DNA of 31,764 nt from Nitrospinota bacterium (lineage in GTDB: Bacteria; Nitrospirota; Thermodesulfovibrionia; Thermodesulfovibrionales; UBA1546), in assembly GCA_018896985.1 (NCBI GenBank), contig JAHILQ010000287.1, positions 1 through 31,764 of the forward strand, read 5' to 3'. Positions 8,869 to 29,157 of the stretch are shown piece after piece. Position 1 is the first letter of the stretch, and the number at the start of each line of letters is the position of its first letter. Position numbers and translations under genes: made by a program. The notes beneath the pieces were generated by a model. That model was not told the DNA's origin. It saw nothing but the letters and a program-made list of their open reading frames with translations, and ran no database searches.

Positions 8869-9297
8869 CTACTTATTTTCTGTTTTCAAGTATTTTAATA
8901 TTGCCTCTTCAAAATTCTTAAAATCTCCGATATGCTTTTTAATAATTGTCACTACAATTTCAGTATCAACATCTTCATATCTGTGGACAACAATATTCCT
9001 GAATTTAATCATCTTATCCATAATTGCATATAACTCCGGCTCAATAATATTGTTTTCAAGCAGGACATTAAAAGTGTCGGCATAACTTGTCGGCGGTCTC
9101 ATGTCCTTATCAGAGATGATGTGATGAGCTATGTCTACACATGTCTCTATCATCATCTGTAATGTCCTTTCAATAATTCGCTGAAGTTTCCAATCAGACT
9201 TATACTCCTGAATTGTTATATCAGAAAACTCCTCAATCTGTTTTTGATACGTCTCAAGTTCTGAAATCTTTCTCAGGACAACATTCTTATCAACCAA
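8869..9297 (-). CDS. hepT: HepT-like (DUF86, HEPN) ribonuclease toxin
   Basis: ERTLQMMIETCVDIAHHII, FRNIVVHRY (R-X4-H motif). Start reassigned to TTG 9297 (MVDKNVVLRK), which overlaps the MNT stop and has GGAG 8 nt upstream. Confidence 0.9.
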   Translation of the reverse strand: MVDKNVVLRKISELETYQKQIEEFSDITIQEYKSDWKLQRIIERTLQMMIETCVDIAHHIISDKDMRPPTSYADTFNVLLENNIIEPELYAIMDKMIKFRNIVVHRYEDVDTEIVVTIIKKHIGDFKNFEEAILKYLKTENK

Positions 9298-9712
9298 TTC
9301 CGTATCTCCTTGCAAAAAAGGCGTCTTCTTTGACCTTGAAATCAAAAAATTCCCTTAATGTTACTGATTCGTATATATGACGCCTGAATGGTTCCTTGTC
9401 AATAAGAAGTTTTTTGTTCTGAAGTATTCTGCCGGCAATGCTGAGAGACACGGTATTAAGCATCACAAGGTCAAGTTCTGATGTCCCAAGGGCGTTTGAA
9501 AGCCTGTCAAAAAGCTGGAGCTTATAGCCTGCGAGATTGCCGGTATCTTTCAAGTAGACTGCGATATCTATATCAGAAAGGTCTTTTACCTCTCCTTTGG
9601 TTAAACCGCCAAACAGATATGCAAACACAATATTGTCATCTTGAAGAAGGACATTCTTCAAATTCTGAATTCTTGATAAGATATTTTTGGGCAGCTTTTC
9701 ATACTTTATCAT
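9290..9712 (-). CDS. mntA: MntA-type minimal nucleotidyltransferase antitoxin
   Basis: YLFGGLTKG...SDIDIAV and ELDLVMLN motifs; directly upstream of and overlapping the DUF86 gene. Confidence 0.9.
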   Translation of the reverse strand: MIKYEKLPKNILSRIQNLKNVLLQDDNIVFAYLFGGLTKGEVKDLSDIDIAVYLKDTGNLAGYKLQLFDRLSNALGTSELDLVMLNTVSLSIAGRILQNKKLLIDKEPFRRHIYESVTLREFFDFKVKEDAFFARRYGIG

Positions 9713-9768: not shown

Positions 9769-10854
9769 TCACACATTAAACCTGAAATTGATTATATCCC
9801 CGTCTTTTACTTCGTAAGTTTTACCTTCAAGCCTCAGAAGCCCTTTTTCACGCGCGGCAGACATGCTGCCGTGTGATATGAAATCATCAAATGATACAAC
9901 CTCTGCCCTTATGAATCCGCGCTCAATGTCAGAATGAATTTTTCCTGCCGCCTTCTGCGCATCTGTGCCTTTCTTTATTGTCCATGCCCTGACCTCATCC
10001 TCTACAACTGTAAGAAATGAGATAAGACCAAGGAGGTCGTACGAGACATGGATTAATCTGTTTAATGCAGGCTCATGGATACCGAGGTCATTAAGAAATG
10101 CCTCTGCCTCTTCCGGAGACAACTGCGCAATCTCCATCTCAATCTTACCGCAGAGGGTTAATACTTTTACCTGTTTGCCTTTGAAGAATTTCTGAAGTTC
10201 GGAAGTTGTTCCAGCAGTCTCTTCAGAATTCAAATCTTTTTCCGAAACATTTAAAACAATAACCACAGGCTTTATTGACATGAACTGGAGGTTTCTTATG
10301 GTCTTTTGCTCTTCCTCTGAAAAGCCCATGTCTCTGAGAGCGGTCTCCTTTTCCAGCGCCTCTTTGCATTTAACAAGAACTTTCTTTTCTGTCTCATCAG
10401 GCTTCTTGCCTCTCTTTTTCCCCTGCTCCATCCTCTCAAGCCTTTTTTCAACAAGTTCAATATCTCCGAAAATCATCTCAAGCTCTACAGTCTCAGCATC
10501 ACGGACAGGGTTTACATTTGCCATCGGATGAACTATTGATTCATCCTCAAAACCTCTGACAACATGGACTACAGCATCAACGTCCTTTATGAGGTCAGAT
10601 ACTTTTCTGTTCTGCTCAATATCGCCTTTTGTAATGCCTATATAATCAATGTATTCTACTGTGGCGTATGTTGTTTTCTTCGGTTTATAAATCGCTGCCA
10701 GTTTTTCAATCCTTGAATCAGGGACCTTTACAACACCGGGATGAGGCTCTGCCGTGAGAGTTGGATATATTGTCGTCTCAAGGTTTAAGCCTGTCAGGGC
10801 ATTAAAGATTGTTGTCTTTCCTGAATTCGCAAGTCCGGTAATGGCTATTTTCAT
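9769..10854 (-). CDS. ychF: Redox-regulated ATPase YchF (Obg family)
   Basis: GLANSGKTTIFNALT, PHPGVVKVPDSR, EVRAWTIKKG, AAGKIHSDIERGFIRAEV, EGKTYEVKDGDIINFRFNV. Confidence 0.97.
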   Translation of the reverse strand: MKIAITGLANSGKTTIFNALTGLNLETTIYPTLTAEPHPGVVKVPDSRIEKLAAIYKPKKTTYATVEYIDYIGITKGDIEQNRKVSDLIKDVDAVVHVVRGFEDESIVHPMANVNPVRDAETVELEMIFGDIELVEKRLERMEQGKKRGKKPDETEKKVLVKCKEALEKETALRDMGFSEEEQKTIRNLQFMSIKPVVIVLNVSEKDLNSEETAGTTSELQKFFKGKQVKVLTLCGKIEMEIAQLSPEEAEAFLNDLGIHEPALNRLIHVSYDLLGLISFLTVVEDEVRAWTIKKGTDAQKAAGKIHSDIERGFIRAEVVSFDDFISHGSMSAAREKGLLRLEGKTYEVKDGDIINFRFNV

Positions 10855-10858
10855 TATT

Positions 10859-11911
10859 TCAGAACAGCCCCTTAGGTATATTTATCCCGAGATGCTGATA
10901 TGCATGCTTTGTGGCAAATCTGCCTCTCGGAGTTCTTTCAAGAAAACCTTCCTGAAGGAGATAAGGCTCATAGACATCTTCTATTGTCTCTTTGTCCTCT
11001 CTCAATGCTGCCGAAAGAGTATCTACGCCAACCGGCCCGCCGCTGAATTTCTCTATAATTATAGAGAGGAGTTTCCTGTCTATGTCATCAAGGCCCTTTT
11101 CATCAACATCAAGGGCAAGAAGAGAGTCTTTTGTTATCTTCATATCAATTGCACCGTCTCCTTTCACCTGCGCAAAATCCCTTATCCTTCTGAGAAGCCT
11201 GTTTGCAATCCTCGGCGTGCCTCTTGAGCGCAGTGCAATCTCAAGCGCGGCATCATCCTTAATCTCTATGCCGATAATCCCTGAAGACCTCAGCACGATT
11301 TTTTTAAGTTCAGAGTGCCCATAAAATTCAAGCCTGTTTATTACTCCGAATCTGTCTCGTAAGGGAGATGTGAGAAGCCCAGTCCTTGTTGTTGCGCCTA
11401 TCAAAGTAAATTTGGGCAGGCTTAATTTCAGTGTCCTTGCATTAGGCCCCTGCCCGATGATTATATCAAGCTGGTAATCCTCCATTGCTGGATAAAGAAC
11501 CTCTTCCACTATCCTCGGGAGGCGGTGTATCTCGTCTATGAAGAGGATGTCAAAGTCTGAAAGGTTTGTAAGTATTGCAGCGAGGTCTCCCTGCCTTTCA
11601 AGCACAGGTCCTGATGTTGACCTGATGTTTACCTTAAGCTCATTTGCGATTATCGTTGCAAGGGTCGTCTTTCCAAGCCCCGGAGGCCCGCAGAAAAGGA
11701 CATGGTCTAAAGGCTCATTCCTCTGCCTTGCAGCAGTGATGAATACTCCGAGATTTTCCTTTATCTTTTCCTGTCCTACAAAATCGCTGAATGCCTTTGG
11801 CCGCAGATTGAGTTCATAGGTTAAGTCTTCCTCTTTAATGACTCCGAGCTGTTCGGAGTCAGGCTGGTCGCCTCGGGCGACTCGCTGAGGTGAGTCATCT
11901 TTACGTATCAT
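10859..11911 (-). CDS. ruvB: Holliday junction branch migration helicase RuvB (with N-terminal insertion)
   Basis: [49 protein letters not shown]. Confidence 0.98.
11832..11903. mobile_element. 60-bp palindromic element (11838-11897) flanked by a 6-bp direct repeat TCTTTA, in frame in ruvB
   Basis: Hairpins TGACTCCGA/TCGGAGTCA (11839-11861), GTCGCC/GGCGAC (11867-11881) and GACTC/GAGTC (11879-11896); TGACTC/GAGTCA termini; TCTTTA at 11832-11837 and 11898-11903. Confidence 0.7.
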
Positions 11912-11946
11912 AAAATTAATCCCATGTTCTTAATTTTAATTCTCCT

Positions 11947-12525
11947 CTATGTCTGCTCACTCCCTGTAAGATATTTTAAAGATTCTTTTAGTAAAGTTTC
12001 TATATCCTTATATCCTTTTTTGTAAGCTATCTCAAGCGACTCTATCGCCTCTGATTTTTTATACCCGAGATTAACAAGCGCTGAAAGCGTGTCTTCAAAA
12101 AGCCTGTCTCTGGATTTCTCTGCCCGGGGGAGCTTTTCCCTCAGTTCAAGTATTAACCTGTGCGCTGTTTTCTTGCCAAGCCCGGGTATCCGGCATAAGA
12201 GCGCAACATCCTCTTTTTCCATTGCATGCATAAAATCATCATGTGATATTCCTGAGAGTATGTTTAACGCCATCTTCGGGCCTATGCCTGTTACGCCGAG
12301 AAGGGTGGTGAATATCCTTTTTTCATCCTCGGTTGCAAATCCGTATAACTGGAGCGCGTCTTCACGGACATGAGTATAGATATTCAGAAAAACTGTGCTA
12401 CCTTCTGCCGGAAGATTCGAGAGTATGCTTAAAGGGACATTTACCTGATACCCCACACCGCCGGCTTCCACGATGACATTATCGGGCCTTCTTGAAATGA
12501 GCTTTCCTCTTAATGAACCAATCAT
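11947..12525 (-). CDS. ruvA: Holliday junction DNA-binding protein RuvA
   Basis: MIGSLRG, GGVGYQV, HVREDALQLYGF, GIGPKMALNILS, PGLGKKTAHRLILEL, ALVNLGY. Confidence 0.98.
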   Translation of the reverse strand: MIGSLRGKLISRRPDNVIVEAGGVGYQVNVPLSILSNLPAEGSTVFLNIYTHVREDALQLYGFATEDEKRIFTTLLGVTGIGPKMALNILSGISHDDFMHAMEKEDVALLCRIPGLGKKTAHRLILELREKLPRAEKSRDRLFEDTLSALVNLGYKKSEAIESLEIAYKKGYKDIETLLKESLKYLTGSEQT

Positions 12526-12579
12526 GGTTTTAATTTTAACCTAAATTAGATTTTTATTTATTCTGCTATTTAGACAGTA

Positions 12580-13801
12580 TCATTTTACATCTCTTATGAT
12601 TTTCATTTCCACAAGTCTCTGCCTTTCATGCTCTATTTCTGCTTTTAAGAGTTTAGGGTTAGGCAGTTGTAATTTATACTTTGAGGCAAATATCATGTTG
12701 TTCATTCCGCCCAAAGCATACTCAACTACAGTTTTCTTTTTGCCTGTGCAGAGGATTAAACCCACAGGGTCGTTTTCTTCAGGAAGTTTTTCCTTGTCTT
12801 TAATATAATTGACATAAAGGTTCATCTGCCCTGCGTCAGCATGTGTAAATTCACCAATCTTCAAATCTATAGCAACAAGACATCTCAAAACTCTGTGATA
12901 AAGAAGAAGATCAAGGCGGTAATGACTTCCTTCAAGGGTTATTCTTTTTTGACGGGCAACAAAGGTGAAACCATTTCCTAATTCAAGAAGGAAATGCTCA
13001 AGGTGTCTGATTAAAGCATCTTCCAGTTGGGATTCAGAATATTCATCCTTCAATCCAAGGAATTCAAGAATATAAGGGTCTTTTATCTCATCTTCGGGTT
13101 TAAGGGTAATGGGTTTTTCATGGGCTTTGGCAATAACAGCCAATTTGCGTTTAGACAGGGCAGTTCTTTCATAAAGCATTGACTGAATCTGTCTGTCAAG
13201 CTGTCTTACTGACCAGTTGCCGCGGAACACTCTCTCCCTCATAGAATTCACGCTTAAAAGGTTCATCAAGACGCATAAGGAGGCAGTAATGTGACCACGA
13301 GAGGGGGAATTGTGCGCACAGCGTGTGCGAAATTTCAGATTGGCTATACAGTGTAGAGCCTTTCTTAGATTTTCCAGACACTGTCTGGGATTTTGGCGGC
13401 ATAAAAGATTCTTCAGACGGTGTATGAAGTATTGCTGATAATTCAGCAGACGGCGTCTGTCTTTTTTTTGTTTTTGAAGATTCTTCAGACATTGTCTGAA
13501 GAATCTTTTCCGATGGATAACCAAGATAAAACTGGCGCATTAAATTCAAATTTATATAGCCAAAGCCTTTACCAAATCTTTTAGTCAAATCTGAAGACAA
13601 TCTTCTTATAAGTTCTTTTCCATATTCTGCCCGTTCTTTCCCTTTTTGCTCATATTCAACAATCCTCCTGCCGATGAGCCAGTAGGTACCCACAAGCGCT
13701 GTATTCACATACCGCACCGCTGTCCTGCGTCCCTGATTGATGAGGGAGGCAACGTCAGTGATGAGAGAGGAGTATTTATTGCTCTTTGTAGGCTTTTTCA
13801 T
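12580..13801 (-). pseudogene. yhcG: DUF1016/YhcG-family PD-(D/E)xK nuclease split by a +1 frameshift near 13224
   Basis: N-half (13196..13801): YWLIGRRIVEYEQKG..RAEYG, LSWSHY. C-half (12580..13524): WSVRQLDRQI, IKDPYILEFL, FLLELGNGFTFVARQKR, DLKIG, GQMNLY. Removing one C from GTTCCGC joins them as YEGESVRGNWSVRQ. Confidence 0.85.
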
Positions 13802-13929
13802 TCGCTGCTCTTTTCAATCATTTCTTTACCCTTCCAACCTTGCCTGAAGTTCGGATTTAAATTCCCCGTGATTCTTTTCCCTCAATGCCTTGAAGAATAA
13901 ATCATACCTCATTGAGGAAAAATTATTTA

Positions 13930-14649
13930 CTACTTCCCGCCAAAAATTTTCTTGATCAATGGCTTTTTCAGTTCGCTCATGATTTCTTCCATTTTTGTTT
14001 TTATTTCGGCATTCTGAGAAGTTAGCGATTCAATTAGTTTTCTATGTTCCTCATGTGTGTTCTTTAGCCCTTCAATTTCTTTTACCTGAGCATTAAGATT
14101 GTCTTTCGTTGTCTCAATAAGTTTGTGATAGCTGTCTATCTGTTGATTGAGATTTGAGATAAGAGCATTCTGTTTGTATAAAAAGTCTGCAATTCCTTTT
14201 TCAGCTTTTTGCATGCTGCTATCTACATGGTCTTTAATTTGAGATTTAAACGACTCTAACTCATTTAATTTTGATTCTACAAACTGTAGTAATTCTTGTT
14301 TTGTATCAGATAAAAATTTATCAATTTCTTGTTTTCTTAGTTTGACAAAGAAATTTAAGGAATTTGCCTCGTTTGAATATTCCTCAATAAAATTTTTTAC
14401 TTCTTTTTCCGCTTTTATTTTAGAAGATTTTATTTCTTGGGTGACATTTTCTCCTTCAGCTAGTAACTCTTTTAATCTATCTTCAATGGCAGATATTTGT
14501 CCTTTCTTGTTTTGCATATCTGAGAACATTTTCTGAGCATCATCTTTAATCCTTTTTAATGCCTCTAAAGTTGCAATGGATTGCTGGATAAAATTATCAA
14601 AATCTTTGAGTTTTTGCCTGATTTTTTCGGAATCAATAATCTCAGCCAT
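13930..14649 (-). CDS. Soluble coiled-coil protein with basic amphipathic C-terminus
   Basis: 239 aa, heptad-rich with no TM; start overlaps the helicase stop; GAGGGGG upstream; ends KKPLIKKIFGGK. Confidence 0.75.
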   Translation of the reverse strand: MAEIIDSEKIRQKLKDFDNFIQQSIATLEALKRIKDDAQKMFSDMQNKKGQISAIEDRLKELLAEGENVTQEIKSSKIKAEKEVKNFIEEYSNEANSLNFFVKLRKQEIDKFLSDTKQELLQFVESKLNELESFKSQIKDHVDSSMQKAEKGIADFLYKQNALISNLNQQIDSYHKLIETTKDNLNAQVKEIEGLKNTHEEHRKLIESLTSQNAEIKTKMEEIMSELKKPLIKKIFGGK

Positions 14650-17600
14650 AATATGCCCCCTCTATTTGTTGCTTAAGTTCTCCAAATCTCTTTGAATAAG
14701 TAGCTTCAAGTTCATTACATAGAAAGAAAAATCCGAAGCGCTCCTTCATGTCATTCAACTTTTCATCATGGCCAGTTTTCAACAGCTCTCCAGCTTTCCC
14801 ATAAAGCCATTTCATTCCATCATCGTTGTTAAACCTGCCATACTCGTCATCCAAAATAAAAAGCAACTCTCTCTTGAACTCAGCTTCTGAAGACCTGTAG
14901 AGTTCAATTACTATATCCATATGCAAGAATTCATTGGCAGTTCGAATAAGGCGTTTTGTGTTTGCTTCCTTTTCATTCTCTGGTGAAAATTCCCTACAAA
15001 AGTACAATGCCACTAAATTATTTGGAGAGCCTTCGAGGACACCTCTTGATCGATAATAAATTCCTTTTGGATAATTACGGAAAGCATCTCTCAACCTTAC
15101 TAATCTGTAATAGTCAAAATGTCCTGATAATAAGACATCGTTCAACTCTTTTTGCAATTCTATGGCTTCTGCAGTTCCTTTTGGAGGTACCCTTGTATCC
15201 CTCTTAAAATGCAAATCTCCAACACAAACATCACAGAGTTCACATTTATAGTCTTCTTCAAAAGATTTTGGATTTGTATTGAAAAATCGTAATATTACCG
15301 GTCTTCTGCATTCTCTGTCTTTATTCCATATAACATAATGTAGGTTCCATAACATGTCATATCGCATTCTAACGACTTCTTTATAAATGTGGTTAAGAAT
15401 AACCAATAGATAATCAATTATTTTGTGGTAGAACCATTTGTATTCATCATAATGCTGAAGATTTCTCCGATCTATTCTTTTAATAATGTCAGCGTCATAT
15501 TGCTCTTTGCATTTATTAATTCTGCTTGAAATTGTCTCTGGATTTTCAATTTCTGAAACTTCATAGAGACTATTTCTTTTTAAATATTCTATCAATCTAT
15601 CTGTCATGCCCTCTGTATTTAGCTTTAACCTAATTTTATTTTCGGGAGTTGTTTCAGTATAGGGAGTTACTTCAAAAGAAGGTAATCGATGTTTATAAAA
15701 AACAGAAAACTCTTGCACTATACCTAATATTTTCAGCCTGAACAAAGCGAGTTCATCACTCTTAAGTCTTGAATTGGATGATTTAAAAATAATCGTACCA
15801 CCAAAACCTTCAAGAAACGAGCTGATTAATTTATCCAATGTAGTAATTATGCTGGCAACATCTGCCTCAACGCTTGGATAGCTTCTTTTTATGAATACAT
15901 GCTGCTTCCCGTAATCACATAAACTTCCCCTCCCATGAGAACAGTTCCCTCTATTATTACACATGGGAGTTTTAGCCTCATCAATTTTTTCCAGTCTATG
16001 AATGCAATCATCACTCGGTATTTCCGCTAATATCACGCAATGAGCTCTTTCGTTATCCCTACCTGCACGCCCTGCCTCTTGATACCAAGATTCAATTCCT
16101 GAGGCAAAAGATGTATGCAAAATAAACCGTACACTCCCTTTATCTATCCCCATTCCAAAACCTTTTGTAGCAACTAAGATATCAAATTTGCCACTTTTGA
16201 ACTCGTTTTGATTCCTAAAAGTAGCTTTTTGATATTTTGTTGGTCTGTTAGCATCCTGAGTATTTGTCTGGACAAATATGTGATCACAATAGAGACACCT
16301 TTTTCTTCCTCTTGGAATTTCATCTAAGTCGGAATCTTCCCCGATTTCAGAATAATCGTCTTCTTCTACACTTCGGTCACTAATGTATTGATAGCAATTG
16401 CAGTTAGGGCACAGAGTTGGTGATTTTGAGGAAAACGCCCTGACTCTACCGTTTCCGTAATCAGTCAGTTCGTAGTCGTTTTCTCTTTCAAAAAATATTT
16501 CGGGTTCAATAATTTTCTTTGTTTCATACAGATAATGGGAGATACCATCATAGATTGAATATCTGCCATGAGGGTCAGCGTAAATAGAATAAATTATGCC
16601 TACATTCTTTTCATCCCGCATATTAGAAGTGGTAACAACATCGTAAATATCTTTTTTCTTTAAGGATTTTGGGATTGATTTGGTCAAGATTTGTTTGAAC
16701 TTCTCCTGTTTTTCCTTGTGGTCTTTAACGGTTACAATCTGGTAGCTGAAACTTATCCTGTCAAAATCTGTTTCAGAGATTACATTTTCATCTTTAAGAT
16801 TGAGAATATTTACAATATCTCTTCTGACCATTCCGCCTGCAGTTGCCGTAAGCGATATTATTTGCAAATCATCATTCTTTGCCTTTAAGGCTTGAAAAAA
16901 GAATGGAATATTTAAATATGAGGGTCTGAAGTCATGTCCCCATTCTGATATGCAGTGTGCTTCATCAATTATCAAATAGTTGATTTTTCTGAATTCCTGT
17001 ATTTTAATTAAATGTTCCAGAAATTTTTTGATACGAATCCTCTCTGGTGCAACATAAAGCAGTTTAATCTTTCCTAATAAAACATCTGTTACTATTTGCT
17101 CCTGTTCTTCTGGGCTTACATCACTGTTTATAAATTCCATTGAAGATATACCATAATTCTGAAGGGTTGACTTCTGGTCACGCATTAAAGAACGCAAAGG
17201 ACATATCACGATTGAAAGTCCCGGCTTTAATAATGCAGGAAGCCAAAAGCAAAAAGATTTTCCGCTACCTGTTGGAGATATTCCCAATACATCTTTTCCA
17301 CTAAAAATATGTTTAAACACTCTTTCTTGAAATGAATACGTCCCGTCTCTGTATCTGAATATCGAATTAGAATAATAGTTCAGATATTCTTTAATATCTT
17401 CTATCTGCAAATCGTTTCTGAAATTAAAGTCATCTTTTTCGTTTACTGATAATCTCGCCTGCAAATTTGGGTCACTGATTGCTTGTGAATTAATTTCAAT
17501 TTCAGATGCGAGTTCCATATTTGTTATAGAGATTTTGGGGTGCAACTGGTATTCATTATTCAAATCGTGATGAATGATTTTTATGTAGGGCAGATTGAGA

Positions 17601-18502
17601 TCTATATTGAACAATCTCTCAATATCACCAAGAAATCTATACAGGCTGCTTAATGAAAGAGAGGCTAAAGAGAAAGAATAAGAAAGATTGTCCTTTATGA
17701 TAAGTTCACTGTCAATATTTTTTTCAGAGAAAATGTCAGCGATAAAATCCTGAACGAGATAAAAGTTATTAACTAAATCTATTGGATCTAATGCCTCACT
17801 GGCGTCAAAGGATTTCTGCGTCTGTTCAAAAAGGGCAGATTGTTTGTCTTTTAAAAGGTATCTTTTTAGCTCAGCATCTTTTGAAAAAATATCAAATATT
17901 TGCTTCCTTGTTTTTTCAGTGTTATATTTGATGTGTGTATAGCTGAATCTGCAAACCTGCCAGTCTAAGTTAATTATCTCATTCTGACGGAATAAAAAAT
18001 CATCCAGATTGCCTCTGTTTTCAAATTTTCCGAATCCATCAATTTCAAAGACATATTTCTTTTCACCGACTATGGCAAAATCTGCAAAATATTGAGCTAT
18101 CTGTTTTTGGGGTTCAACCTTTAATAAACCGTGCGGGGATAATACAGGCGATAATACTCTCTTTACAAATTCAGCTTCTAAATAATTATTATCATCAATC
18201 GGCTGAAAGTGTGGGTAACATTTAAAATACTCCTGATATTTTCTTTTGTTTTCAGCATTGGAACTGGTTGAATTCAATATCCTTTTGCCGATTGAACGAT
18301 CGAGTGTGAACTTTTCTAAATCAATGTATTTCTCTAAAAGCTTCTTGTATTCTTCAGGCAAAAAAAGTAATTTCAAATCAATAAAACTGCGTGCTTCTTC
18401 ATCACTTGTAATTTTCGATTTTGATGGATTATCGTCAAACTTGTAGACGCCTCTTATCCTGGAAGGTAGGAAATACTTTATTAGACAAGTATTAATCTCC
18501 AT
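14642..18502 (-). CDS. RecQ-family SF2 helicase fused to an N-terminal DUF559/Vsr-like endonuclease domain
   Basis: Nuclease-like QKQIAQYFADFAI..FEIDG..RQNEI..WQVCRFSY. Helicase motifs SPTGSGKS, DEAHCISEWGHDFRPSY, LTATA, ATKGFGMGIDK, YQEAGRAGRD. RQC-type zinc CRR...CELCDVC. Confidence 0.85.
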   Translation of the reverse strand: MEINTCLIKYFLPSRIRGVYKFDDNPSKSKITSDEEARSFIDLKLLFLPEEYKKLLEKYIDLEKFTLDRSIGKRILNSTSSNAENKRKYQEYFKCYPHFQPIDDNNYLEAEFVKRVLSPVLSPHGLLKVEPQKQIAQYFADFAIVGEKKYVFEIDGFGKFENRGNLDDFLFRQNEIINLDWQVCRFSYTHIKYNTEKTRKQIFDIFSKDAELKRYLLKDKQSALFEQTQKSFDASEALDPIDLVNNFYLVQDFIADIFSEKNIDSELIIKDNLSYSFSLASLSLSSLYRFLGDIERLFNIDLNLPYIKIIHHDLNNEYQLHPKISITNMELASEIEINSQAISDPNLQARLSVNEKDDFNFRNDLQIEDIKEYLNYYSNSIFRYRDGTYSFQERVFKHIFSGKDVLGISPTGSGKSFCFWLPALLKPGLSIVICPLRSLMRDQKSTLQNYGISSMEFINSDVSPEEQEQIVTDVLLGKIKLLYVAPERIRIKKFLEHLIKIQEFRKINYLIIDEAHCISEWGHDFRPSYLNIPFFFQALKAKNDDLQIISLTATAGGMVRRDIVNILNLKDENVISETDFDRISFSYQIVTVKDHKEKQEKFKQILTKSIPKSLKKKDIYDVVTTSNMRDEKNVGIIYSIYADPHGRYSIYDGISHYLYETKKIIEPEIFFERENDYELTDYGNGRVRAFSSKSPTLCPNCNCYQYISDRSVEEDDYSEIGEDSDLDEIPRGRKRCLYCDHIFVQTNTQDANRPTKYQKATFRNQNEFKSGKFDILVATKGFGMGIDKGSVRFILHTSFASGIESWYQEAGRAGRDNERAHCVILAEIPSDDCIHRLEKIDEAKTPMCNNRGNCSHGRGSLCDYGKQHVFIKRSYPSVEADVASIITTLDKLISSFLEGFGGTIIFKSSNSRLKSDELALFRLKILGIVQEFSVFYKHRLPSFEVTPYTETTPENKIRLKLNTEGMTDRLIEYLKRNSLYEVSEIENPETISSRINKCKEQYDADIIKRIDRRNLQHYDEYKWFYHKIIDYLLVILNHIYKEVVRMRYDMLWNLHYVIWNKDRECRRPVILRFFNTNPKSFEEDYKCELCDVCVGDLHFKRDTRVPPKGTAEAIELQKELNDVLLSGHFDYYRLVRLRDAFRNYPKGIYYRSRGVLEGSPNNLVALYFCREFSPENEKEANTKRLIRTANEFLHMDIVIELYRSSEAEFKRELLFILDDEYGRFNNDDGMKWLYGKAGELLKTGHDEKLNDMKERFGFFFLCNELEATYSKRFGELKQQIEGAYYG

Positions 18503-19006
18503 TTACTTTTTAATAAATTCCAATCTCTGTTCATTAAAGAATTCAAAAAGGTTTATACATGGGATCTGATAATATCCCGCAATCATCGGAATTTTATTCG
18601 GATTGGTTTTGCTCTCTTGAGTTATGATTATAGCTCCCCTTGAATAAGCTAAAGCAATTAAAAAAGGATCAGCTTCCGGTTCATTGTTTGCCAACTTCTT
18701 TTGGTCAAGGAGTTCGGGATGTTCACGTATAATCTTTTGTCCAGCTTCCCAAATCTCACCATTCACAGGAACAATAAAATGTTTTTTACGTGCTTTTACC
18801 CATTTCTTCAAAAAATCATCCTTCCCCTGATATTTTTCTATTTCTTCTTCAACAAATTTTATGGTAAACATATTTCCTTCTTTAATAAGTTTTTCTATTT
18901 CTTCCCATATCGCTTTAAATGCAGGCTCTTTCTTAGGGTAAAATGTTTTTAAAATAATTAAGGCATCTGTATCAATACAAAATGATTTAATAAAAGGCAG
19001 TTTCAT
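18503..19006 (-). CDS. DUF4411-like PIN-domain protein (putative RNase toxin)
   Basis: CIDTDALI, EVxEE-like FVEEEI, ADPFLIALA, IITQES, KIPMIA..IPCINLFEFF pattern; follows an XRE-ImmA gene. Confidence 0.8.
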   Translation of the reverse strand: MKLPFIKSFCIDTDALIILKTFYPKKEPAFKAIWEEIEKLIKEGNMFTIKFVEEEIEKYQGKDDFLKKWVKARKKHFIVPVNGEIWEAGQKIIREHPELLDQKKLANNEPEADPFLIALAYSRGAIIITQESKTNPNKIPMIAGYYQIPCINLFEFFNEQRLEFIKK

Positions 19007-19012
19007 TATTTG

Positions 19013-20161
19013 TTACTTTGAAAGCATCTCATGAACTTTCGGAATCTGATCGATTTTTACCCCTAAATAATCCGCTGTATCCAAAACACTAATCTTTGTC
19101 TGATCATAAGCTTTAAAAACCATAGATATATATTTTTTGCCCCGTTCTTCTACGCAGGCTTTTACAGGATTCCTCCCGCCTCTGCCGAATGGGTGATACT
19201 CTTTTACATTTTCCTCTCTCCATTTTTTATAGAATTGTCCCGAAGTCCTTCCAAGAGTTAATAGTCGCCTCAAGATAACTTCCCTGCTGACCCTGAATTC
19301 ATCAGCGATTGTTTTTAAGGTCTTATTGTCCCAAACATCTGTCTGCTTATTTTGCTTGACTAACGCATTATTGAGAAGTTTTTCGGATGGAACTAAAAAC
19401 GCCCCGGCAAAATGATTACAAAACTTTTCAATTTGCGGGGAATGAGCATCTTCAACCATGTCACATATACCACTTTCGTTCAGAAGGATGTGTGCCAACT
19501 CATGAAATAATGAAAATATTTTCGAGTTTGCTTCATCAGCTTTATTCACAACGATAGCGGGTAATTCTCCTTCAATAATTGAAAACCCTTTTATTTCACG
19601 CTGCTGAATACTTAGTTGAAAAACAAGGACACCATTATCTTCCAAAATACTTTTCCAGCTTTCAAACGCTTCCTCACTGCTGTTAAAGACCGAAATGTTA
19701 AAATCCCTTGAAAAAACTGCTCCTCTGACCATTTCAGCAATTTTTTCAGGTTTATCAGATAATGTTGTTCTGATAGAAAAAGGTCTTATAGGATTGCCTA
19801 ATTCTTTATTCAATTCTATTGCCGATACCTGCAATCTTCTCGCTTTTCTGATTATCAGTAAAGTTTTAGGCGTTAGAGGTTTATGTTTTACTGATAATTC
19901 CGTCCTGAAATCCATGGGTAATGGTAGTTCCTGCGGAGGTTCTGACAACAGAAATGCTGCTAAAGGTCTCTTATATACAGTAGCTAATTTTTCAATTTGA
20001 ACAAAGGTAGGTTTTACCCGCCCTGCTTCCCATTTAGATACAGTGTCCTCACTTACCTTTAGCCTTTTAGCGACTTCTTCTCTATTTCTGCCTATGCTTT
20101 TTCTTGCCCATATCAGCACTCTCGGCTCTACACTAACAGATAAGGATTTATGAGACATCAT
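19013..20161 (-). CDS. XRE HTH + ImmA/IrrE (peptidase M78) protein
   Basis: N-terminal HTH EEVAKRLKVSEDTVSKWEAG; HExxH in FSLFHELAHIL; EKFCNHFAGAFLVP; FRVSREVILRRL; GAGGAGGA RBS. Confidence 0.9.
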   Translation of the reverse strand: MMSHKSLSVSVEPRVLIWARKSIGRNREEVAKRLKVSEDTVSKWEAGRVKPTFVQIEKLATVYKRPLAAFLLSEPPQELPLPMDFRTELSVKHKPLTPKTLLIIRKARRLQVSAIELNKELGNPIRPFSIRTTLSDKPEKIAEMVRGAVFSRDFNISVFNSSEEAFESWKSILEDNGVLVFQLSIQQREIKGFSIIEGELPAIVVNKADEANSKIFSLFHELAHILLNESGICDMVEDAHSPQIEKFCNHFAGAFLVPSEKLLNNALVKQNKQTDVWDNKTLKTIADEFRVSREVILRRLLTLGRTSGQFYKKWREENVKEYHPFGRGGRNPVKACVEERGKKYISMVFKAYDQTKISVLDTADYLGVKIDQIPKVHEMLSK

Positions 20162-20209
20162 TCCTCCTCAAGTCTGTATAAAATATCTGAATAATATTTA
20201 CGTATCAAA

Positions 20210-20395
20210 TTATAAATATATTGTCTTTATCTTCTTTTTGCCTGTAAGCATAGCCTTGACCTCTGATACAGCCTCCTTTAAACCGAGCAAGATCCTCTGT
20301 TTCTGTATTTCCTTCATAAGATGTTCCCATTCCTTATAAGGTATCACCACATTTGTTTTATGTCCCTTTTTATCTGTTATATACTGTATCTGCAT
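20210..20395 (-). CDS. Small antitoxin-like protein with no adjacent toxin
   Basis: QYITDKKGHKTNVVIPYKEW...GLKEA resembles the 25972 protein (QYLTDRKGYKVAAVIDMDEF...GLKEA); AAGGAGG RBS. Confidence 0.6.
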   Translation of the reverse strand: MQIQYITDKKGHKTNVVIPYKEWEHLMKEIQKQRILLGLKEAVSEVKAMLTGKKKIKTIYL

Positions 20396-20527
20396 TTGCT
20401 TTCCTCCTTTCTTATAAATTTTCAGTTTACAATATTATTACAGGTTTTCATATTGTCCCGCAATAGCCGCAGTTATTTATGTAAGCTAAAGAACTTCTTG
20501 CAGCGCAATCTAATTGCCATATTCGTA

Positions 20528-23500
20528 TCATGCCTCTGCAAGCTGCATTGAGATAACCTTTGACACTCCAGGCTCTTCCATCGTTATCCCGTAGATGTAG
20601 TCGGATGCCTCCATGGTCACCCTGTTATGCGTTATCACTATGAACTGGATGTTTGTTGAAAGTTCTCTCAGCATTCTGCTGAATCTTCCGGTATTGGAGT
20701 CGTCCAGCGGTCCATCTGCCTCATCAAGAATGCAGAGCGGAGTTGGCTTTATCAGGAAGCTTGCAAATAAAATAGACAGGGCAGTCAGCGCTTTTTCTCC
20801 GCCTGAAAGAAGACTTATGTTCTGCAATTTTTTACCCGGAGGCTGTGCAATTATGTCTATTCCAGTTTCAAGGATATTATTTTCATCTGTAAGGATGAGT
20901 TCTGCCCTTCCGCCTTCAAAGAGTGAGATGAAGACCTCCGAAAACTTTATCTTTAGCGCCTCAAATGCCTCTCTGAGTTTTTTCCTTGTTGTGCTGTTTA
21001 TCTTTGTTATTGCCTCTTCAAGTTCGGCAATTGACCTGTTGAGGTCGTCCTGCTGTTTTGAAAGAAACTCATACCTTGTTGTTAATTCTTCATATTCTTC
21101 AAGTTTGCCGAGGTTTACAGGCCCGAGTTCCTGTATCTTTTCCTTAAGTTCAGCCAGCCGCTCTTCATCTTCAGGCAAAAGCGGTTCTGTTTCAAGCGAA
21201 TCTATTTCTGTCCCGTAATTCTGCCTTATATTTTCAGTGAGGTTTTCAATCTTCAGCCTGTGCTCTGCTCTCTCTACATCAAGCCTTGAGACTTTAGATG
21301 TGAGAGCATCTATTTCATGCCTGAGCGCCTTGACCGCCTGCTCATATGAGAGCATCTGCTGGTTTTCCTGCTCAAGCGCCTCTTTCCTTGCAGATATGTC
21401 CTCCCTAAGCCTGTCCGCATTTAAAACCATACCCTTTACCTTCTCTTCGTTTTCGACTGATTCTGCCTCTCTCTGTGAGATGCGCTCCTCAACAGACTTT
21501 ATTTCGCCATTCAAAGAATTGTCTTTCTGCAGAAGCTCTTCAGTTGCGTTGTTTGCCGCCTCAATTTCTTTCTGTACCGCTTCTATCTTTTCTTTGTGAG
21601 CTGTTATTGACAGCCTGAGGTCTGTTATATGCGAGCGATCTTCTTCATACCTAATCTTCTTCTGGATTATCTCTTCCAATAGGTCTGCCATATCTTTTTC
21701 TATGGCGCTCTTTTCTGATTCTCCTGCATTTATTGCTTTTTCCTTTTCGCTTATCATGTTTTTGAGTGATTCTTTTTCCCTGACAATCTCTTCAACTTCT
21801 ATTGAAAGATAGGCAAGTTTTCTGTCTGTCCGCTCTTTTTCATCCTGATAGTTTGCAGAGGTAAACTTTGAAAGCGACATCTCTTTTTCTGCATTAACCA
21901 CCGCAGTCTCAATATCCCTGATGCCTGATTCTTTATCTGAAAGTTCCTGCTGAAGCCTGTTGATGTCTTCCTGCAGCATAGATATTGAATCTGTTTTCTG
22001 TCCTATTAACTCTTCAATCTCCCTTAACTCTCTCTTCCTCTTTAAAACTCCTCTGCCTTCTCCGCCTATGACTGCGCCCGAAGGCTCAACAATCTCACCG
22101 TCAAGAGTTACAAAAACTGTTGAATGTTGAATGTTGAATGTTGAATGAAGTTCAATGGCTGTCTTCAGGTCTTTTACAATAAAAATATTTTTAAGAAGAT
22201 TTTTTGCTATGCCTGCAAACTCTGCATCAACCCTTACAAAATCTACTGCCCTTCCGATTATGCCGGCGGGGACATCAGATAATTCATCAGTTGTTCTGGA
22301 ATCAAGCGGGATGAAGGACATCCTGCCGCTGCCCTTTGTCTTCAATATGGAAATGGCAACCTCAATGTCAGCAAGGGATTTAAGTATGAACGAATTGATT
22401 TTTTCTGAGAGGGCGTTTTCAACCGCCTTTTCATATTCAGGTTCAACATTGAGTATATCTGACAGCGAAGAGACAATATGGAGATTAGGCCCGTCCTGGA
22501 GTATTTCACGGGTAGGCGCATCAAGGACAAGTTCCTTCAAAGATCCCATGCGCGATATGTTTGATGCAAGGTCTTCTTTTGTTTTTGACAGCTCATCCCT
22601 GAGATGTTCAATCTTCCCCCTAAGAGAAGCGGCCTCTGATGTATAGACGCTCTTTTTTTCACTGAGCAGAAGGACCTCGGCGTTTCTGTCCCTGAGCGAA
22701 CCCTCCACGTCCCTGATTGATAAATCAATCTCGCCTAAAACTTTCTTTGAATCATCGGCGTCTTTTATCAGCGAAACCTCTTTACGCTCCAGCGCCTCAA
22801 GAGACGCCTGCATCCTGCCTGTCTCGTTTCTAAGTGTGCTCAGTTCCTCTGACACGCTGAATACATTTCTACGTTTTGAATCTACAGCGCTTTCTTTTTC
22901 TGAGAGTTCGTTTTCCACCGACTCAATAAGCTCATTTTTCAGCCTTAGCTCTTCCTTAAGCCCTTCCATATCACCGGAAAGCCTTGCCTCTGTCCCGTTC
23001 ATCTCGCCAAGTTTTTCAGACAACTCTTTTTTCTTGGTTTCGAACTCTTCTCTCTGAGCAAAGAGTTTTGCCAGATATTCTTTCAGGTTGTCCCTGTCCG
23101 TATTCAGCACAGCGATTACTCTTTCGGTTTCCGCTATCATCTTCTCCGCATCTCTGAATTCCTGCTGTATTACCTCAAGGGATTTTTCTTTTTCAAAGAT
23201 GCCAAGCCGGTTTGTTTCTGAAATGTTTTCAATCTTTGTGAGTTCAGCCTTCTTCATGGCCTCGTTCTCTTTAAGGACAGTGTATTCTGCAAGTATCCTT
23301 TCCAGAGATTCTCTTAGCGTCTGATAATCTCTCTTTGCAATCTTGAGTTCTATTGTCCTCATCTCTGCCGAGAGTTTTTTATACCTCTCAGCCTTTTTGG
23401 CCTGCCTATCAAGCGCATTGATCTGCCTTTTTACTTCTAAAACAATATCGTTTATCCTCTGCAGGTTTAATCTTGATGCCTCAAGTTTATTCTGAGCCTC

Positions 23501-24037
23501 TGTCTTCCTGACCTTATATTTCATCACGCCGGCTACTTCCTCTATGATGAACCTTCTGTCCTGTGGTTTGGAATTAAGTACCGCTGCTATCCTGTCCTGT
23601 TCAAGTATTGAATAGCTCTTAACTTCAAGCCCCGTGTCAAGGAACAGGTCTTTTATGTCCTTAAGCCTGCATACGGATTTGTTTGCCATATACTCGCTCT
23701 CGCCGGATCTGTAGAGCCTTCTTGTCACGGATGTGAAGTTCTGGGGGTCATTGCCATTGTCCTGCGTGGGGTCTCCCATGCCTGATACAACAAGCGTTAC
23801 CTCTGCCATCCCTTTTGGTTTTTTTGTTGAAGAGCCGTTGAATATCACTTCCTCCATCTTTTCACCCCTCAGGCTCTTTGCGCTCTGCTCGCCTAATGCC
23901 CATCGGAATGCATCCACTATATTGCTCTTTCCGCAGCCGTTGGGCCCGACTATGCACGTAATCCCGGGATGGAGATTAAACGCAGTTCTTTCGGAGAAAG
24001 ACTTAAAACCTATGAGTTCGATTTTTTCTATACGCAT
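20528..24037 (-). CDS. smc: Chromosome segregation protein SMC
   Basis: GFKSF, GPNGCGKSNIVDA, long coiled coils, hinge VTLDGEIVEPSGAVIGG, LSGGEK, LDEADGPLD, FIVITH. Confidence 0.98.
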   Translation of the reverse strand: MRIEKIELIGFKSFSERTAFNLHPGITCIVGPNGCGKSNIVDAFRWALGEQSAKSLRGEKMEEVIFNGSSTKKPKGMAEVTLVVSGMGDPTQDNGNDPQNFTSVTRRLYRSGESEYMANKSVCRLKDIKDLFLDTGLEVKSYSILEQDRIAAVLNSKPQDRRFIIEEVAGVMKYKVRKTEAQNKLEASRLNLQRINDIVLEVKRQINALDRQAKKAERYKKLSAEMRTIELKIAKRDYQTLRESLERILAEYTVLKENEAMKKAELTKIENISETNRLGIFEKEKSLEVIQQEFRDAEKMIAETERVIAVLNTDRDNLKEYLAKLFAQREEFETKKKELSEKLGEMNGTEARLSGDMEGLKEELRLKNELIESVENELSEKESAVDSKRRNVFSVSEELSTLRNETGRMQASLEALERKEVSLIKDADDSKKVLGEIDLSIRDVEGSLRDRNAEVLLLSEKKSVYTSEAASLRGKIEHLRDELSKTKEDLASNISRMGSLKELVLDAPTREILQDGPNLHIVSSLSDILNVEPEYEKAVENALSEKINSFILKSLADIEVAISILKTKGSGRMSFIPLDSRTTDELSDVPAGIIGRAVDFVRVDAEFAGIAKNLLKNIFIVKDLKTAIELHSTFNIQHSTVFVTLDGEIVEPSGAVIGGEGRGVLKRKRELREIEELIGQKTDSISMLQEDINRLQQELSDKESGIRDIETAVVNAEKEMSLSKFTSANYQDEKERTDRKLAYLSIEVEEIVREKESLKNMISEKEKAINAGESEKSAIEKDMADLLEEIIQKKIRYEEDRSHITDLRLSITAHKEKIEAVQKEIEAANNATEELLQKDNSLNGEIKSVEERISQREAESVENEEKVKGMVLNADRLREDISARKEALEQENQQMLSYEQAVKALRHEIDALTSKVSRLDVERAEHRLKIENLTENIRQNYGTEIDSLETEPLLPEDEERLAELKEKIQELGPVNLGKLEEYEELTTRYEFLSKQQDDLNRSIAELEEAITKINSTTRKKLREAFEALKIKFSEVFISLFEGGRAELILTDENNILETGIDIIAQPPGKKLQNISLLSGGEKALTALSILFASFLIKPTPLCILDEADGPLDDSNTGRFSRMLRELSTNIQFIVITHNRVTMEASDYIYGITMEEPGVSKVISMQLAEA
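22118..22145 (+). repeat. Heptamer tandem repeat (TGTTGAA)x4 inside smc
   Basis: Four exact copies; encodes HSTFNIQHST on the minus strand. Confidence 0.9.
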
Positions 24038-26622: not shown

Positions 26623-27363
26623 TTATTTTTTATCTTCGAATCCAGTGTCCATTCGGGCGAGGGCAAGAAAAGCTTGTGAAATGGAATCTATTTCTTTTTT
26701 ACTGAGCTTATTAGGTTTTTTATTTTCCACAATATAATCGTAAAGTCGATCATCTTTTACGCAATGCACCGCTTTTGTTGTTCCCCATCTCGCATCAACA
26801 CGAGCCGACGGAAAGACTAAGACGCCCTGAATATAAGGGTCGAGATGGCAAAGAGTTTTTACTTTCTCTTTAATATTCATGACTCTGCTTGTTAGAATCT
26901 TAACCTCAGGTTTATTTGTTGGTTTTCCATTAAGAAGAATCTCTCCATTTTCATCCGCCGTAATAATTCCCCTCCAGTTTTTAGCATCGAGAACATAAAC
27001 GCCTGTCGGCCCTACAACAACATGGTCTATATTTCCAAAATCTGTTTTCAAATCATTAAGAACATTGTATTCATCCGGGAAAAGACCGAGGGCATTGCCA
27101 ACGCGAAACTCGCCATCAGCACCCCGTCTATAGTTAAAACGATACCTTTCATGTTTCAAAGCTTTTCGATAAAAAAAATAAAATATTATGCCCCCACCAA
27201 GTAAAAACATTATGCTAAATAAAAAGTTATTTTTTGCGATTGAGTAACCTACTAATGCAGACATCAGTAATAATCCGATAAGGAATGACGAAATAGTTTT
27301 CCCAAACCGTTTTATCGATTCTTCTGATGTATATCTCCCACTTTGACCTAAGACCTTAGCCAT
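26623..27363 (-). CDS. Membrane-anchored NERD (nuclease-related) domain protein
   Basis: Two TM helices, then RGADGEFRV, NIDHVVVGPTGVYVLDAKNWRG; ATG 27363 with AGGAG RBS. Confidence 0.85.
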   Translation of the reverse strand: MAKVLGQSGRYTSEESIKRFGKTISSFLIGLLLMSALVGYSIAKNNFLFSIMFLLGGGIIFYFFYRKALKHERYRFNYRRGADGEFRVGNALGLFPDEYNVLNDLKTDFGNIDHVVVGPTGVYVLDAKNWRGIITADENGEILLNGKPTNKPEVKILTSRVMNIKEKVKTLCHLDPYIQGVLVFPSARVDARWGTTKAVHCVKDDRLYDYIVENKKPNKLSKKEIDSISQAFLALARMDTGFEDKK

Positions 27364-27403
27364 TAGCAACTCCTTCCATTTTCAAATAAAGCTATATTCT
27401 CCA

Positions 27404-27429
27404 TTCCCTTTAAACTTTAGAATTCCTTT
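27404..27429 (+). repeat. 26-bp direct repeat, copy 2 (upstream of the NERD gene)
   Basis: TTCCCTTTAAACTTTAGAATTCCTTT. Confidence 0.8.
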
Positions 27430-27475
27430 ATCTCTCAAAATCTGCAACTGCTGACAAATTTTCGGGCGGATGTGG

Positions 27476-28360
27476 TTAAGCACGTTTTTTAAAGGGATGC
27501 TTCTTAGTTGTTCTACGATATTTTGCAGGTGGCTCAAGTATCAACATCTGCTGGTCATGGAAGATTTGGTTGTACTGCCGAAGTTTGAGTTTATATTCCT
27601 TGCCAATAAATCCTTTTTCAAGTCTGTCTATAATCATCCTATGATATTTTTCATCTAGCTCAGCAGATATAAAATTTCGCCCTAACTCTTTACAAAGACA
27701 TATTTCCGAACCACTACCACCAAAAAGTACTAAAACTGTATCACCTTTAAGTGTGCAAGATTTTATCAGCATTTCTGATAACTTCTGAGGTATCTGACAC
27801 GCATGAAAAGTTTTTTCTTTGCTTACATTTTTTACTAGATCAAAGTAGAACCAGCTATAAGGCATCCTTCCCTTTGAACCATTAGCAATATTACTAAGAA
27901 TTCTTTTATCAGTAGGATTCTTGTATGGTTCTGCCACATTGTCTTTATAAAACTTATTATACTTTGATTTTCTGCAATGGAGTATGCTCCTGTGTGCAGT
28001 TGTAAACCTCTTAGGGGTATGACCAACATTAGTATTATATAGCCAAATATATTCATGCGCATCATAACATGCGCTATCCAAATATTTGACTCTGAGATAG
28101 GCGTTTTGTTTAGGATAGTTCATTAAAAATATATTCCCTTCTTTTTTTAGAACTCTCAAGCATTCCTTCGACAACTCTGTATACCATTCTATATATTCAT
28201 CAAACCCTCGGGTGTAAGATTTATCATTGTATTTTATTCCTACATTATAGTCAGGGTCACCAAAAACCATATCGATGCTTTCCGAAGGAAGAATCCTGAG
28301 CAACTCCATGATGTCTACATTAAAAACTTTGTTTAAGAATTGATTAATATCATTTCTCAT
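27476..28360 (-). CDS. Beta-class amino (N4-C/N6-A) DNA methyltransferase with variant motifs
   Basis: SIDMVFGDPDYN (motif IV variant) near the N-terminus, HACQIPQKL, VLVLFGGSGS (motif I variant), RNFISAELD. Confidence 0.85.
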   Translation of the reverse strand: MRNDINQFLNKVFNVDIMELLRILPSESIDMVFGDPDYNVGIKYNDKSYTRGFDEYIEWYTELSKECLRVLKKEGNIFLMNYPKQNAYLRVKYLDSACYDAHEYIWLYNTNVGHTPKRFTTAHRSILHCRKSKYNKFYKDNVAEPYKNPTDKRILSNIANGSKGRMPYSWFYFDLVKNVSKEKTFHACQIPQKLSEMLIKSCTLKGDTVLVLFGGSGSEICLCKELGRNFISAELDEKYHRMIIDRLEKGFIGKEYKLKLRQYNQIFHDQQMLILEPPAKYRRTTKKHPFKKRA

Positions 28361-28366
28361 ACTGCA

Positions 28367-29143
28367 TTACCGTTTAATCATATTATATTGAGCACTCTTT
28401 AGTATTTTTATTGAACTCATATCGTTTTCATCTTCAAATGTGTAGTTATACAATCTCAGGACAGAGTTTCCTCTGTCTCTTTTCCTTAGAACATAACAGC
28501 ATGTAATCATTTCTACTTCCAATTTCTTTTCACGCTTCAACATAGAATAATATTTAAAGGGGTGAAATAGTTGATAAACTGCAAAATCTCTTGGGAATCC
28601 GTTTTTCCCTTCAAAAATTGTCACCACTCCATGCAACTCCATTGTTAAATCTATTTCCATTTGAAGATTTCTTGTTGAAATTTTTTGTTTTCCAACACGA
28701 TAAGATATGGTCATTTTAGTCCTTCTTGCGTTATAAACTTTTGGGCTGGCAACAATGTCCTCATAAAGAAAATCGTGTATTATCCTCTGGTTGCTCGCAA
28801 CAGACAATATATTTGATTCGCTTGTATCAAATTCATTTAAAATGCTTTTACGATATTTCCAGTCAACGATTTTATTTTCATCAATTTCCTCAAAAATATG
28901 AAAGCCATTACTTATACCTTTGACAAACTTATGCCTGCCTTCTCCCAAATGCAGGATAAAGCAATCTTTATCTATAAGCAGTTCTGGTAATTTAGTAGTA
29001 TCGTCAAATTTTGTAGCATCAAAAGGATTTGCAAAATTGAATTTTTTACAGACTTGTTTCACTAAATCATTATCAAAGACGGTATCTTGTTTATCTTTGC
29101 AGAGTTTATAAATCTTTGTAATTACATCCTGCTTAGTTCCCAT
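28367..29143 (-). CDS. Putative PD-(D/E)xK restriction endonuclease
   Basis: QMEID...IFEGKN pattern; 6 nt upstream of the MTase; ATG 29143 with GAGGAG RBS. Confidence 0.65.
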   Translation of the reverse strand: MGTKQDVITKIYKLCKDKQDTVFDNDLVKQVCKKFNFANPFDATKFDDTTKLPELLIDKDCFILHLGEGRHKFVKGISNGFHIFEEIDENKIVDWKYRKSILNEFDTSESNILSVASNQRIIHDFLYEDIVASPKVYNARRTKMTISYRVGKQKISTRNLQMEIDLTMELHGVVTIFEGKNGFPRDFAVYQLFHPFKYYSMLKREKKLEVEMITCCYVLRKRDRGNSVLRLYNYTFEDENDMSSIKILKSAQYNMIKR

Positions 29144-29157
29144 TTTCAACTCCTCAT

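Follow-up and report, generated by a model that had tools for sequence, protein, structure and literature searches.

The 31,764-nucleotide contig JAHILQ010000287.1 of a Nitrospinota bacterium (GenBank assembly GCA_018896985.1, positions 1 to 31,764, forward strand), hereafter the window, carries four adjacent minus-strand genes lying in a segment inserted between the core genes smc and ruvA. Their comparison with related loci leads us to regard the locus as probably a defence-type island of mosaic origin, in which two autonomous modules have been joined by recombination, and not as one obligate four-part machine. Module A consists of genes 1 and 2, encoding a helix-turn-helix (HTH)-ImmA protein and a DUF4411 protein, while module B consists of genes 3 and 4, encoding a nuclease-RecQ fusion and its coiled-coil partner. 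The four genes are the following:

19013-20161, minus strand: gene 1 (382 aa), HTH-ImmA/IrrE (M78) protein, putative VapB52-type antitoxin and repressor, assigned from Pfam, PADLOC and PDB 9VZY_A.
18503-19006, minus strand: gene 2 (167 aa), DUF4411 PIN-like nuclease, putative VapC52-type toxin, assigned from Pfam and PDB 9VZY_D/9VZZ_A.
14642-18502, minus strand: gene 3 (1286 aa), fusion of a DUF559/Vsr-like nuclease with a RecQ-family helicase, assigned from Pfam, NCBIfam, PDB 1oyw and an AlphaFold2 (AF2) model.
13930-14649, minus strand: gene 4 (239 aa), coiled-coil partner of the RecQ fusion, assigned from conserved adjacency and overlap.

An earlier note, made from the sequence of the window, had described an AT-rich run of four genes between core genes and had read it as a candidate defence operon; this description was borne out, and the locus is an acquired island of defence type. 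The four open reading frames (ORFs) are intact at the reported positions, with intergenic gaps of 6, 0 and -8 nt, and Pfam backs the domain assignments of all four. Their GC content is 0.33-0.37, compared with 0.40-0.45 in the smc and ruvAB flanks. The position between core genes is supported more strongly than the note had stated, as an insertion between smc and ruvA by comparison with five of five genomes of the same genus, and both this insertion and the sporadic distribution of the RecQ fusion agree with acquisition. No terminator-like site was found on the minus strand between 12300 and 20700 which, together with the narrow gaps, makes a single transcription unit plausible; the four genes are thus probably co-transcribed in this genome.

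The two modules are separable because most relatives of module B lack module A and because the two halves of the locus have different nearest relatives. Module B loci were grouped at 90% identity, resulting in 18 non-redundant lineages (the loci retrieved for comparison are designated L followed by a number). An ImmA-DUF4411 pair precedes the RecQ fusion in only two of them, the window and L089/L093; in the other 16 the RecQ gene and its partner occur without it, and the upstream genes that were scanned belong to neither family. In the next relative, L001 (68% identity), the gene upstream of the helicase is unrelated. The proteins of the window and L089 are 76% identical for the helicase, 55-63% for the partner, 46% for ImmA and 42% for DUF4411, and the ImmA protein of the window has many closer relatives in other contexts, with up to 89% identity. 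The same division is visible in the nucleotide sequence. L137, a type III restriction operon of the order RelB-RelE-mod-ImmA-DUF4411-res, shares 79-80% identity with positions 18492-20168 and 20220-20431, and L089 shares 78% with positions 13928-18525. One tract of similarity gives way to the other at the DUF4411 stop/RecQ start, the boundary at which modules A and B would have been joined by recombination.

The earlier note had instead proposed one system, in which a PIN toxin triggered by damage would work together with a nuclease-helicase and a scaffold as one machine. The tight gene spacing and the identical gene order in L089/L093 are what such an obligate four-gene system would lead one to expect, and the latter also means that the two pairs, whose failure ever to occur together had been named as an argument against the proposal, do occur together once more. 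However, 16 of the 18 helicase-pair lineages lack genes 1 and 2, 58 of the 401 genomes examined in the phylum contain DUF4411 but one of 401 the RecQ fusion, the window is a mosaic, and the coiled-coil gene tracks the helicase only, with no sign that its product is a scaffold for all four proteins. A fixed four-gene system is therefore already largely refuted by distribution and we consider it very improbable. The comparative data show what the note had offered as a fallback, namely two adjacent two-gene modules. Its idea of a damage trigger fits genes 1 and 2, which are full-length homologs of VapB52 and VapC52, the former being reported to cleave itself on single-stranded DNA (ssDNA).

By homology, genes 1 and 2 are a VapBC52-type toxin-antitoxin pair, a kind already characterised, and module A is a further member of a known family. 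Gene 1 contains the Pfam domains HTH_3 and Peptidase_M78, and its residues 11-378 align with residues 2-385 of VapB52 (PDB 9VZY_A, E 5e-51), covering all three domains. In this alignment the HExxH motif (H220, E221, H224) corresponds to the zinc site of VapB52, and the FR motif F85-R86 (DFR), in the linker after the HTH, to the VapB52 motif. Gene 2 matches Pfam DUF4411 (1.8e-28), shows a weak PIN match and is similar to VapC52 (PDB 9VZY_D, 9VZZ_A; E 1.5e-12); its acidic residues D12, E55, D113 and E131 are present and conserved in 31-32 of 32 DUF4411 sequences. Comparison with PADLOC, a check suggested in the earlier note, gave a match of gene 1 to the RmrA models (best 5.9e-29), whereas gene 2 matched no PADLOC model, RmrT included. 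Among 36 DUF4411 loci fetched from genomes of the same phylum, an ImmA homolog lies directly upstream of DUF4411 in 35.

The reference pair, VapBC52 (Rv2515c/Rv2514c), comes from Mycobacterium tuberculosis; its antitoxin cleaves itself on ssDNA, and its toxin cuts tRNAs and protects M. smegmatis from phage D29 when overexpressed (PMC13273310). The pairing of Xre-COG2856 proteins with PIN toxins had been predicted in 2009 and 2017 (PMC2701414, PMC5499597). In the RosmerTA systems, an RmrA Zn-peptidase antitoxin is combined with variable RmrT toxins (Millman et al., preprint 10.1101/2022.05.11.491447; PMC10440598). That ImmA proteins can be associated with PIN-like toxins has been noted as well.

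By its sequence, gene 3 encodes a true RecQ-family enzyme. Pfam places DUF559/MTES_1575 in residues 124-204, followed by DEAD (390-556) and Helicase_C (763-816), and gives a weak match to RecQ_Zn_bind; the protein scores 271.7 bits on the NCBIfam model TIGR00614 (recQ_fam, cut-off 219.8) and matches Escherichia coli RecQ (PDB 1oyw) with an E-value of 5.4e-82. It is not a canonical RecQ: its score on the TIGR01389 equivalog model is 285 bits against a cut-off of 640, and neither RQC (PF09382) nor HRDC (PF00570) gave a Pfam match at E up to 0.1. DpdF of the Dpd system was also rejected (NF041063, 156 bits against a cut-off of 550), and no dpd-like gene is present among the annotated genes of the island or the rest of the window. 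A multiple alignment with 20 homologs from several phyla (36-77% identity) revealed that the nuclease site (D141, E153, D155, K159), Walker A (K415), the DEAH box (513-516), motif VI and three Cys4 clusters are invariant.

The protein further has N- and C-terminal domains specific to the family. The AF2 model of residues 1-390 (pLDDT 82) places the nuclease domain with the Vsr-like homing endonuclease I-Bth0305I (3r3p, probability 1.0), while a Foldseek search of the PDB with the model of residues 826-1286 (pLDDT 82) returned no significant whole-model match. Some family members (P0106, P0108; 1458-1479 aa) add a DnaQ-like exonuclease domain (PF00929), a WRN-like exonuclease-RecQ architecture. 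The fusion is the sole RecQ-family gene in the genome of the window, and no canonical RecQ was found in this genome or in eight others of the same genus, where only DEAD-box-type helicases gave weak matches to recQ models. A housekeeping RecQ was rejected as its identity, since the gene is absent from all close relatives and lies inside an insertion.

Gene 4 gave only generic coiled-coil matches, in Pfam, PADLOC and NCBIfam as well as when a profile of the partner family was compared with the PDB, yet its position is highly conserved. All ten loci (10/10) reached through helicase homologs have, next after the helicase, a gene of 246-406 aa lacking a strong Pfam match, and these genes are homologous to gene 4, with a common N-terminus, a core motif at about 150-175 and a short basic tail. 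The reverse test relied on a trimmed partner alignment, the untrimmed one being too divergent for pattern scans, and retrieved 34 metagenome loci. In every one of them with at least 1.5 kb of upstream DNA the helicase lies directly upstream, except in L112. At L112 (7394-8838) the partner is kept and only a remnant of the helicase C-terminus precedes it, a decayed copy of module B. In the non-redundant set the partner follows the helicase in all 18 loci. The stop and start of the two genes overlap by 8 nt in 20 of 22 junctions and by 13 nt in the remaining two. From this arrangement, helicase and partner are a translationally coupled and conserved two-gene module. A complex prediction with the partner and helicase residues 1-390 and 961-1286, the helicase core and its insertion being left out, gave a score of 0.00, which speaks neither for nor against binding.

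Module B is probably an anti-phage or anti-plasmid system. The family is small, with about 40 clusters at 50% identity reaching E 1e-30 when an N-terminal profile was run against 1.84 billion representatives, and none of five genomes of the same genus carries the RecQ fusion. A pattern search of genome contigs with the full-length helicase alignment drew on motifs common to RecQ proteins, and nearly all the loci it returned were those of canonical RecQ. In L121-L125 (e.g. L121:1216-12312) module B is carried by a P4-like integrative element, and genes for a tyrosine integrase, a D5_N/Toprim primase and a protein with an SNase domain lie just upstream. Its neighbours in other loci include a Gabija-like OLD and UvrD pair together with Fic (L005), PemK (L003), SIR2 (L002) and a Toprim/AAA_25 gene (L106). 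In L104 the gene directly after module B (10171-12120) encodes a 649-aa protein in which FtsK-gamma, Sel1 repeats and a RuvB-like AAA domain are fused to an HNH nuclease; it, too, seems to be of defence type. None of the PADLOC system models fits a combination of RecQ, DUF559 and coiled coil, and the literature searched for this domain combination describes no named system. We consider module B an uncharacterised variant of the nuclease-helicase class, and its combination with an ImmA-DUF4411 cassette as new in detail. The module is found conserved in several phyla and is spread by horizontal transfer; were it to defend cells, the nuclease-helicase immune systems would gain a RecQ-based member with an obligate coiled-coil subunit.

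Some of the same features could be accounted for if module B did not serve immunity and acted in DNA repair or recombination, or in the maintenance or addiction of a mobile element, as a genotoxic RecQ-like helicase held by its partner in the manner of RqlH/RqlI. The true RecQ-family core, the genus devoid of canonical RecQ, the WRN-like architecture of P0106 and P0108, the integrative element of L121 and the small overlapping downstream partner, which recalls a toxin-antitoxin layout, all agree with such a role. However, its presence in one genome out of 401, and in none of the close relatives, shows that housekeeping does not require the enzyme, gene 3 lacks the RQC and HRDC domains, and toxin-antitoxin and defence genes are its neighbours in several loci. 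We therefore judge a role outside immunity unlikely and retain defence as the probable function of module B.

The ImmA-DUF4411 cassette, for its part, is frequently associated with restriction genes: at least 13 of the 36 DUF4411 loci are part of restriction operons or adjoin them. The gene immediately after DUF4411 encodes HsdR in L178, L184 and L208, Res in L188 and L207 (in L177, Res lies after a methylase gene) and a type ISP enzyme in L185, while HsdS or methylase genes precede the cassette in L184, L197, L200 and L203-L206. The closest relatives of the ImmA protein of the window are encoded between mod and res (L137, L140). The slot that belongs to a restriction subunit at other cassette loci is filled in the window by the RecQ fusion. 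A general link of PIN toxins with type I restriction operons had been noted before (PMC5499597). ImmA-DUF4411 cassettes also adjoin reverse transcriptase and Schlafen/AlbA_2 genes (L173:6754-8340; L204:5594-6805; L209:5499-6251).

Several points weigh against reading the locus as two independent modules of which the second is a defence system. The same four genes follow one another in L089/L093, where the ImmA-DUF4411 allele is a different one, and the cassette is often found just ahead of helicase-type restriction subunits, so that speaking of independent modules may understate a real functional link between A and B. The defence role of module B is drawn from genomic context only, and the physical binding of partner and helicase from gene coupling alone. 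Finally, a scan of viral contigs with the trimmed partner alignment found no module B.

A functional link could take the form of a coupled two-layer system, where ImmA-DUF4411 would be a portable ssDNA-sensing guard or regulator placed in front of helicase-nuclease effectors (HsdR, Res, type ISP enzymes, or RecQ with its partner). Single-stranded DNA or DNA fragments made by the effector would induce self-cleavage of the antitoxin, or the HTH domain would control transcription of the effector, and a first-line attack on DNA would be followed by abortive infection through tRNA cleavage. The arrangement is plausible because the antitoxin family is reported to be triggered by ssDNA (PMC13273310), and a helicase generates it. 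It also agrees with the frequency of the cassette in or beside restriction operons, at times directly before HsdR, Res or type ISP genes, with the location between mod and res of the closest ImmA relatives of the window, with the presence of two different cassette alleles in front of closely related RecQ genes and with the gap of 0 nt between DUF4411 and RecQ. On the other hand, toxin-antitoxin genes cluster with defence genes generally (PMC5499597), the pairing is missing from 16 of 18 RecQ lineages and from the majority of DUF4411 loci, neither experiment nor co-variation links the proteins of the two modules, and the pair in L139 stands alone and is decaying. We regard such coupling as possible, albeit doubtful, and keep two autonomous modules as the preferred interpretation.

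A broader claim would join both ideas, module B being a new stand-alone anti-phage or anti-plasmid system and VapBC52-type cassettes being portable ssDNA-sensing second layers that time and again dock directly upstream of helicase-nucleases; we advance it only tentatively. If true, an abortive response by tRNA cutting would be set off when the first layer processes DNA, or when it fails. The locus is also a natural experiment on the assembly of defence operons, a cassette of the ssDNA-sensing kind having passed by recombination from a restriction operon to a different helicase-nuclease, with the join exactly between two genes, and the junction of cassette and helicase makes the sensing of DNA processing by a second layer directly testable.

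As judged from sequence, both modules are intact with their catalytic residues in place, and we propose how each could work. By homology with the M. tuberculosis pair, the HTH-ImmA protein would bind and neutralise the DUF4411 PIN-like RNase until ssDNA causes it to cut itself at the linker after the HTH, and the toxin so freed would cleave tRNA. By analogy with other nuclease-helicases, the nuclease-RecQ protein may load on foreign or damaged DNA, unwind it in the 3'-5' direction and nick or degrade it. Helicase and partner would be made in a fixed ratio through the conserved 8-nt stop/start overlap, and the partner could be a regulatory subunit, present in stoichiometric amount, that holds the enzyme back or directs it to its target, much as HamA is restrained by HamB in Hachiman and RqlH by RqlI.

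The segment that contains the four genes also includes two remnants:

12526-20527, no strand assigned: inserted accessory island of about 8 kb, from the smc stop to the ruvA start, defined by junction alignment and GC content.
20210-20395, minus strand: orphan RelB-like antitoxin remnant of 61 aa (Pfam RelB-like, 27.4 bits).
12580-13801, minus strand: yhcG (DUF1016_N and YhcG_C, a PD-(D/E)XK nuclease), frameshifted in two overlapping frames, the last gene of the island.

The segment 12526-20527 is an insertion because the smc stop and the ruvA start are contiguous in all five genomes of the same genus that were searched. The junction alignment fixes the break points, and CATGAT occurs at both junctions (12520-12530 and 20520-20530). 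Upstream of the island is smc (20528-24037), and downstream are ruvA, ruvB and ychF. With no minus-strand terminator-like site found, ruvAB may now depend on read-through of the island. The island holds six items, namely the RelB-like ORF, the four genes and the frameshifted yhcG, and no integrase. It has no methyltransferase gene either, the mod of the related L137 cassette being missing, and a type I or type III restriction-modification system was ruled out on this basis. The RelB-like remnant is 80% identical in nucleotides to positions 67-279 of L137, where relB is followed by a gene for a 112-aa RelE-like toxin and by the type III mod methylase gene; in the island both are deleted and about 50 nt are left.

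The domains of yhcG are split over the overlapping frames 13196-13801 and 12580-13524, and the gene is probably a pseudogene. The zone where these frames overlap contains a perfect 15-nt palindrome (13477-13507) inside a longer inverted repeat (13403-13509), and comparison with a palindromic element in ruvB revealed no relation. Elsewhere in the window (8869-9712 and 26623-29149), other defence-type genes encode an MNT-HepT toxin-antitoxin pair, a NERD-domain protein and a DNA methylase together with a DUF6996/DUF6997 protein. Neither a tRNA nor an Rfam family was found in the window.

Among known systems, VapBC52 shares with module A the gene order and architecture, with the HTH, the FR-motif linker, the IrrE/ImmA peptidase with HExxH and the C-terminal domain in one protein and a DUF4411 toxin with an acidic site in the other. 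The homology is nevertheless distant and extends to another phylum, and the pair described here, known from its sequence, forms part of a larger operon, immediately ahead of a helicase-nuclease gene. RosmerTA resembles it in its layout, an ImmA-type antitoxin with an adjacent toxin, and through the match of gene 1 to the Zn-peptidase antitoxin RmrA; the validated RmrT toxins are of other kinds, e.g. membrane-depolarising, and gene 2 corresponds to none of the RmrT models.

As for module B, PsyrTA and RqlHI likewise combine a RecQ-family helicase with a small adjacent partner, and gene 3 matches the PADLOC model of PsyrT (7.1e-66). However, in gene 3, which adds the Vsr-like nuclease and further domains, the best match to PsyrT is confined to the N-terminal portion of the helicase core (389-608), and the antitoxin of PsyrTA is DprA-like whereas gene 4 is a plain coiled coil with no PsyrA match. 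As gene 4 is not a DprA-like partner, an identity with PsyrTA/RqlHI was rejected. Hhe, like gene 3, joins a helicase and a Vsr/DUF559-type endonuclease in one polypeptide, and its defence requires the nuclease active site (Gao et al. 2020, as described in preprint 10.1101/2022.06.16.496414). It is a single gene with the nuclease near the C-terminus (E1731), whereas in gene 3 the nuclease is N-terminal (about 107-208), the motor is of RecQ type and a partner gene is always present; the nuclease position and the partner gene set Hhe, by its description, apart. Preprint 10.1101/2024.02.29.582594 describes Hachiman as a system where the helicase governs the release of the nuclease on DNA damage. 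This logic of nuclease and helicase makes HamAB our proposed working analogy for module B, but in gene 3 the two activities are fused; Hachiman itself was rejected as an identity, there being no DUF1837/HamA match and only a weak and partial match to HamB (1.6e-5).

PrrC-EcoprrI and other toxins are lodged in restriction operons, which brings them close to the locus as a whole. The toxin family and its control are different here, with a protease-antitoxin, a downstream effector other than a restriction subunit and no methyltransferase, but the likeness lies in an RNA-cutting toxin module set within the operon of a DNA-targeting helicase-nuclease, an arrangement seen for the cassette in L137, L140, L184 and L188 and, by analogy, in the window.

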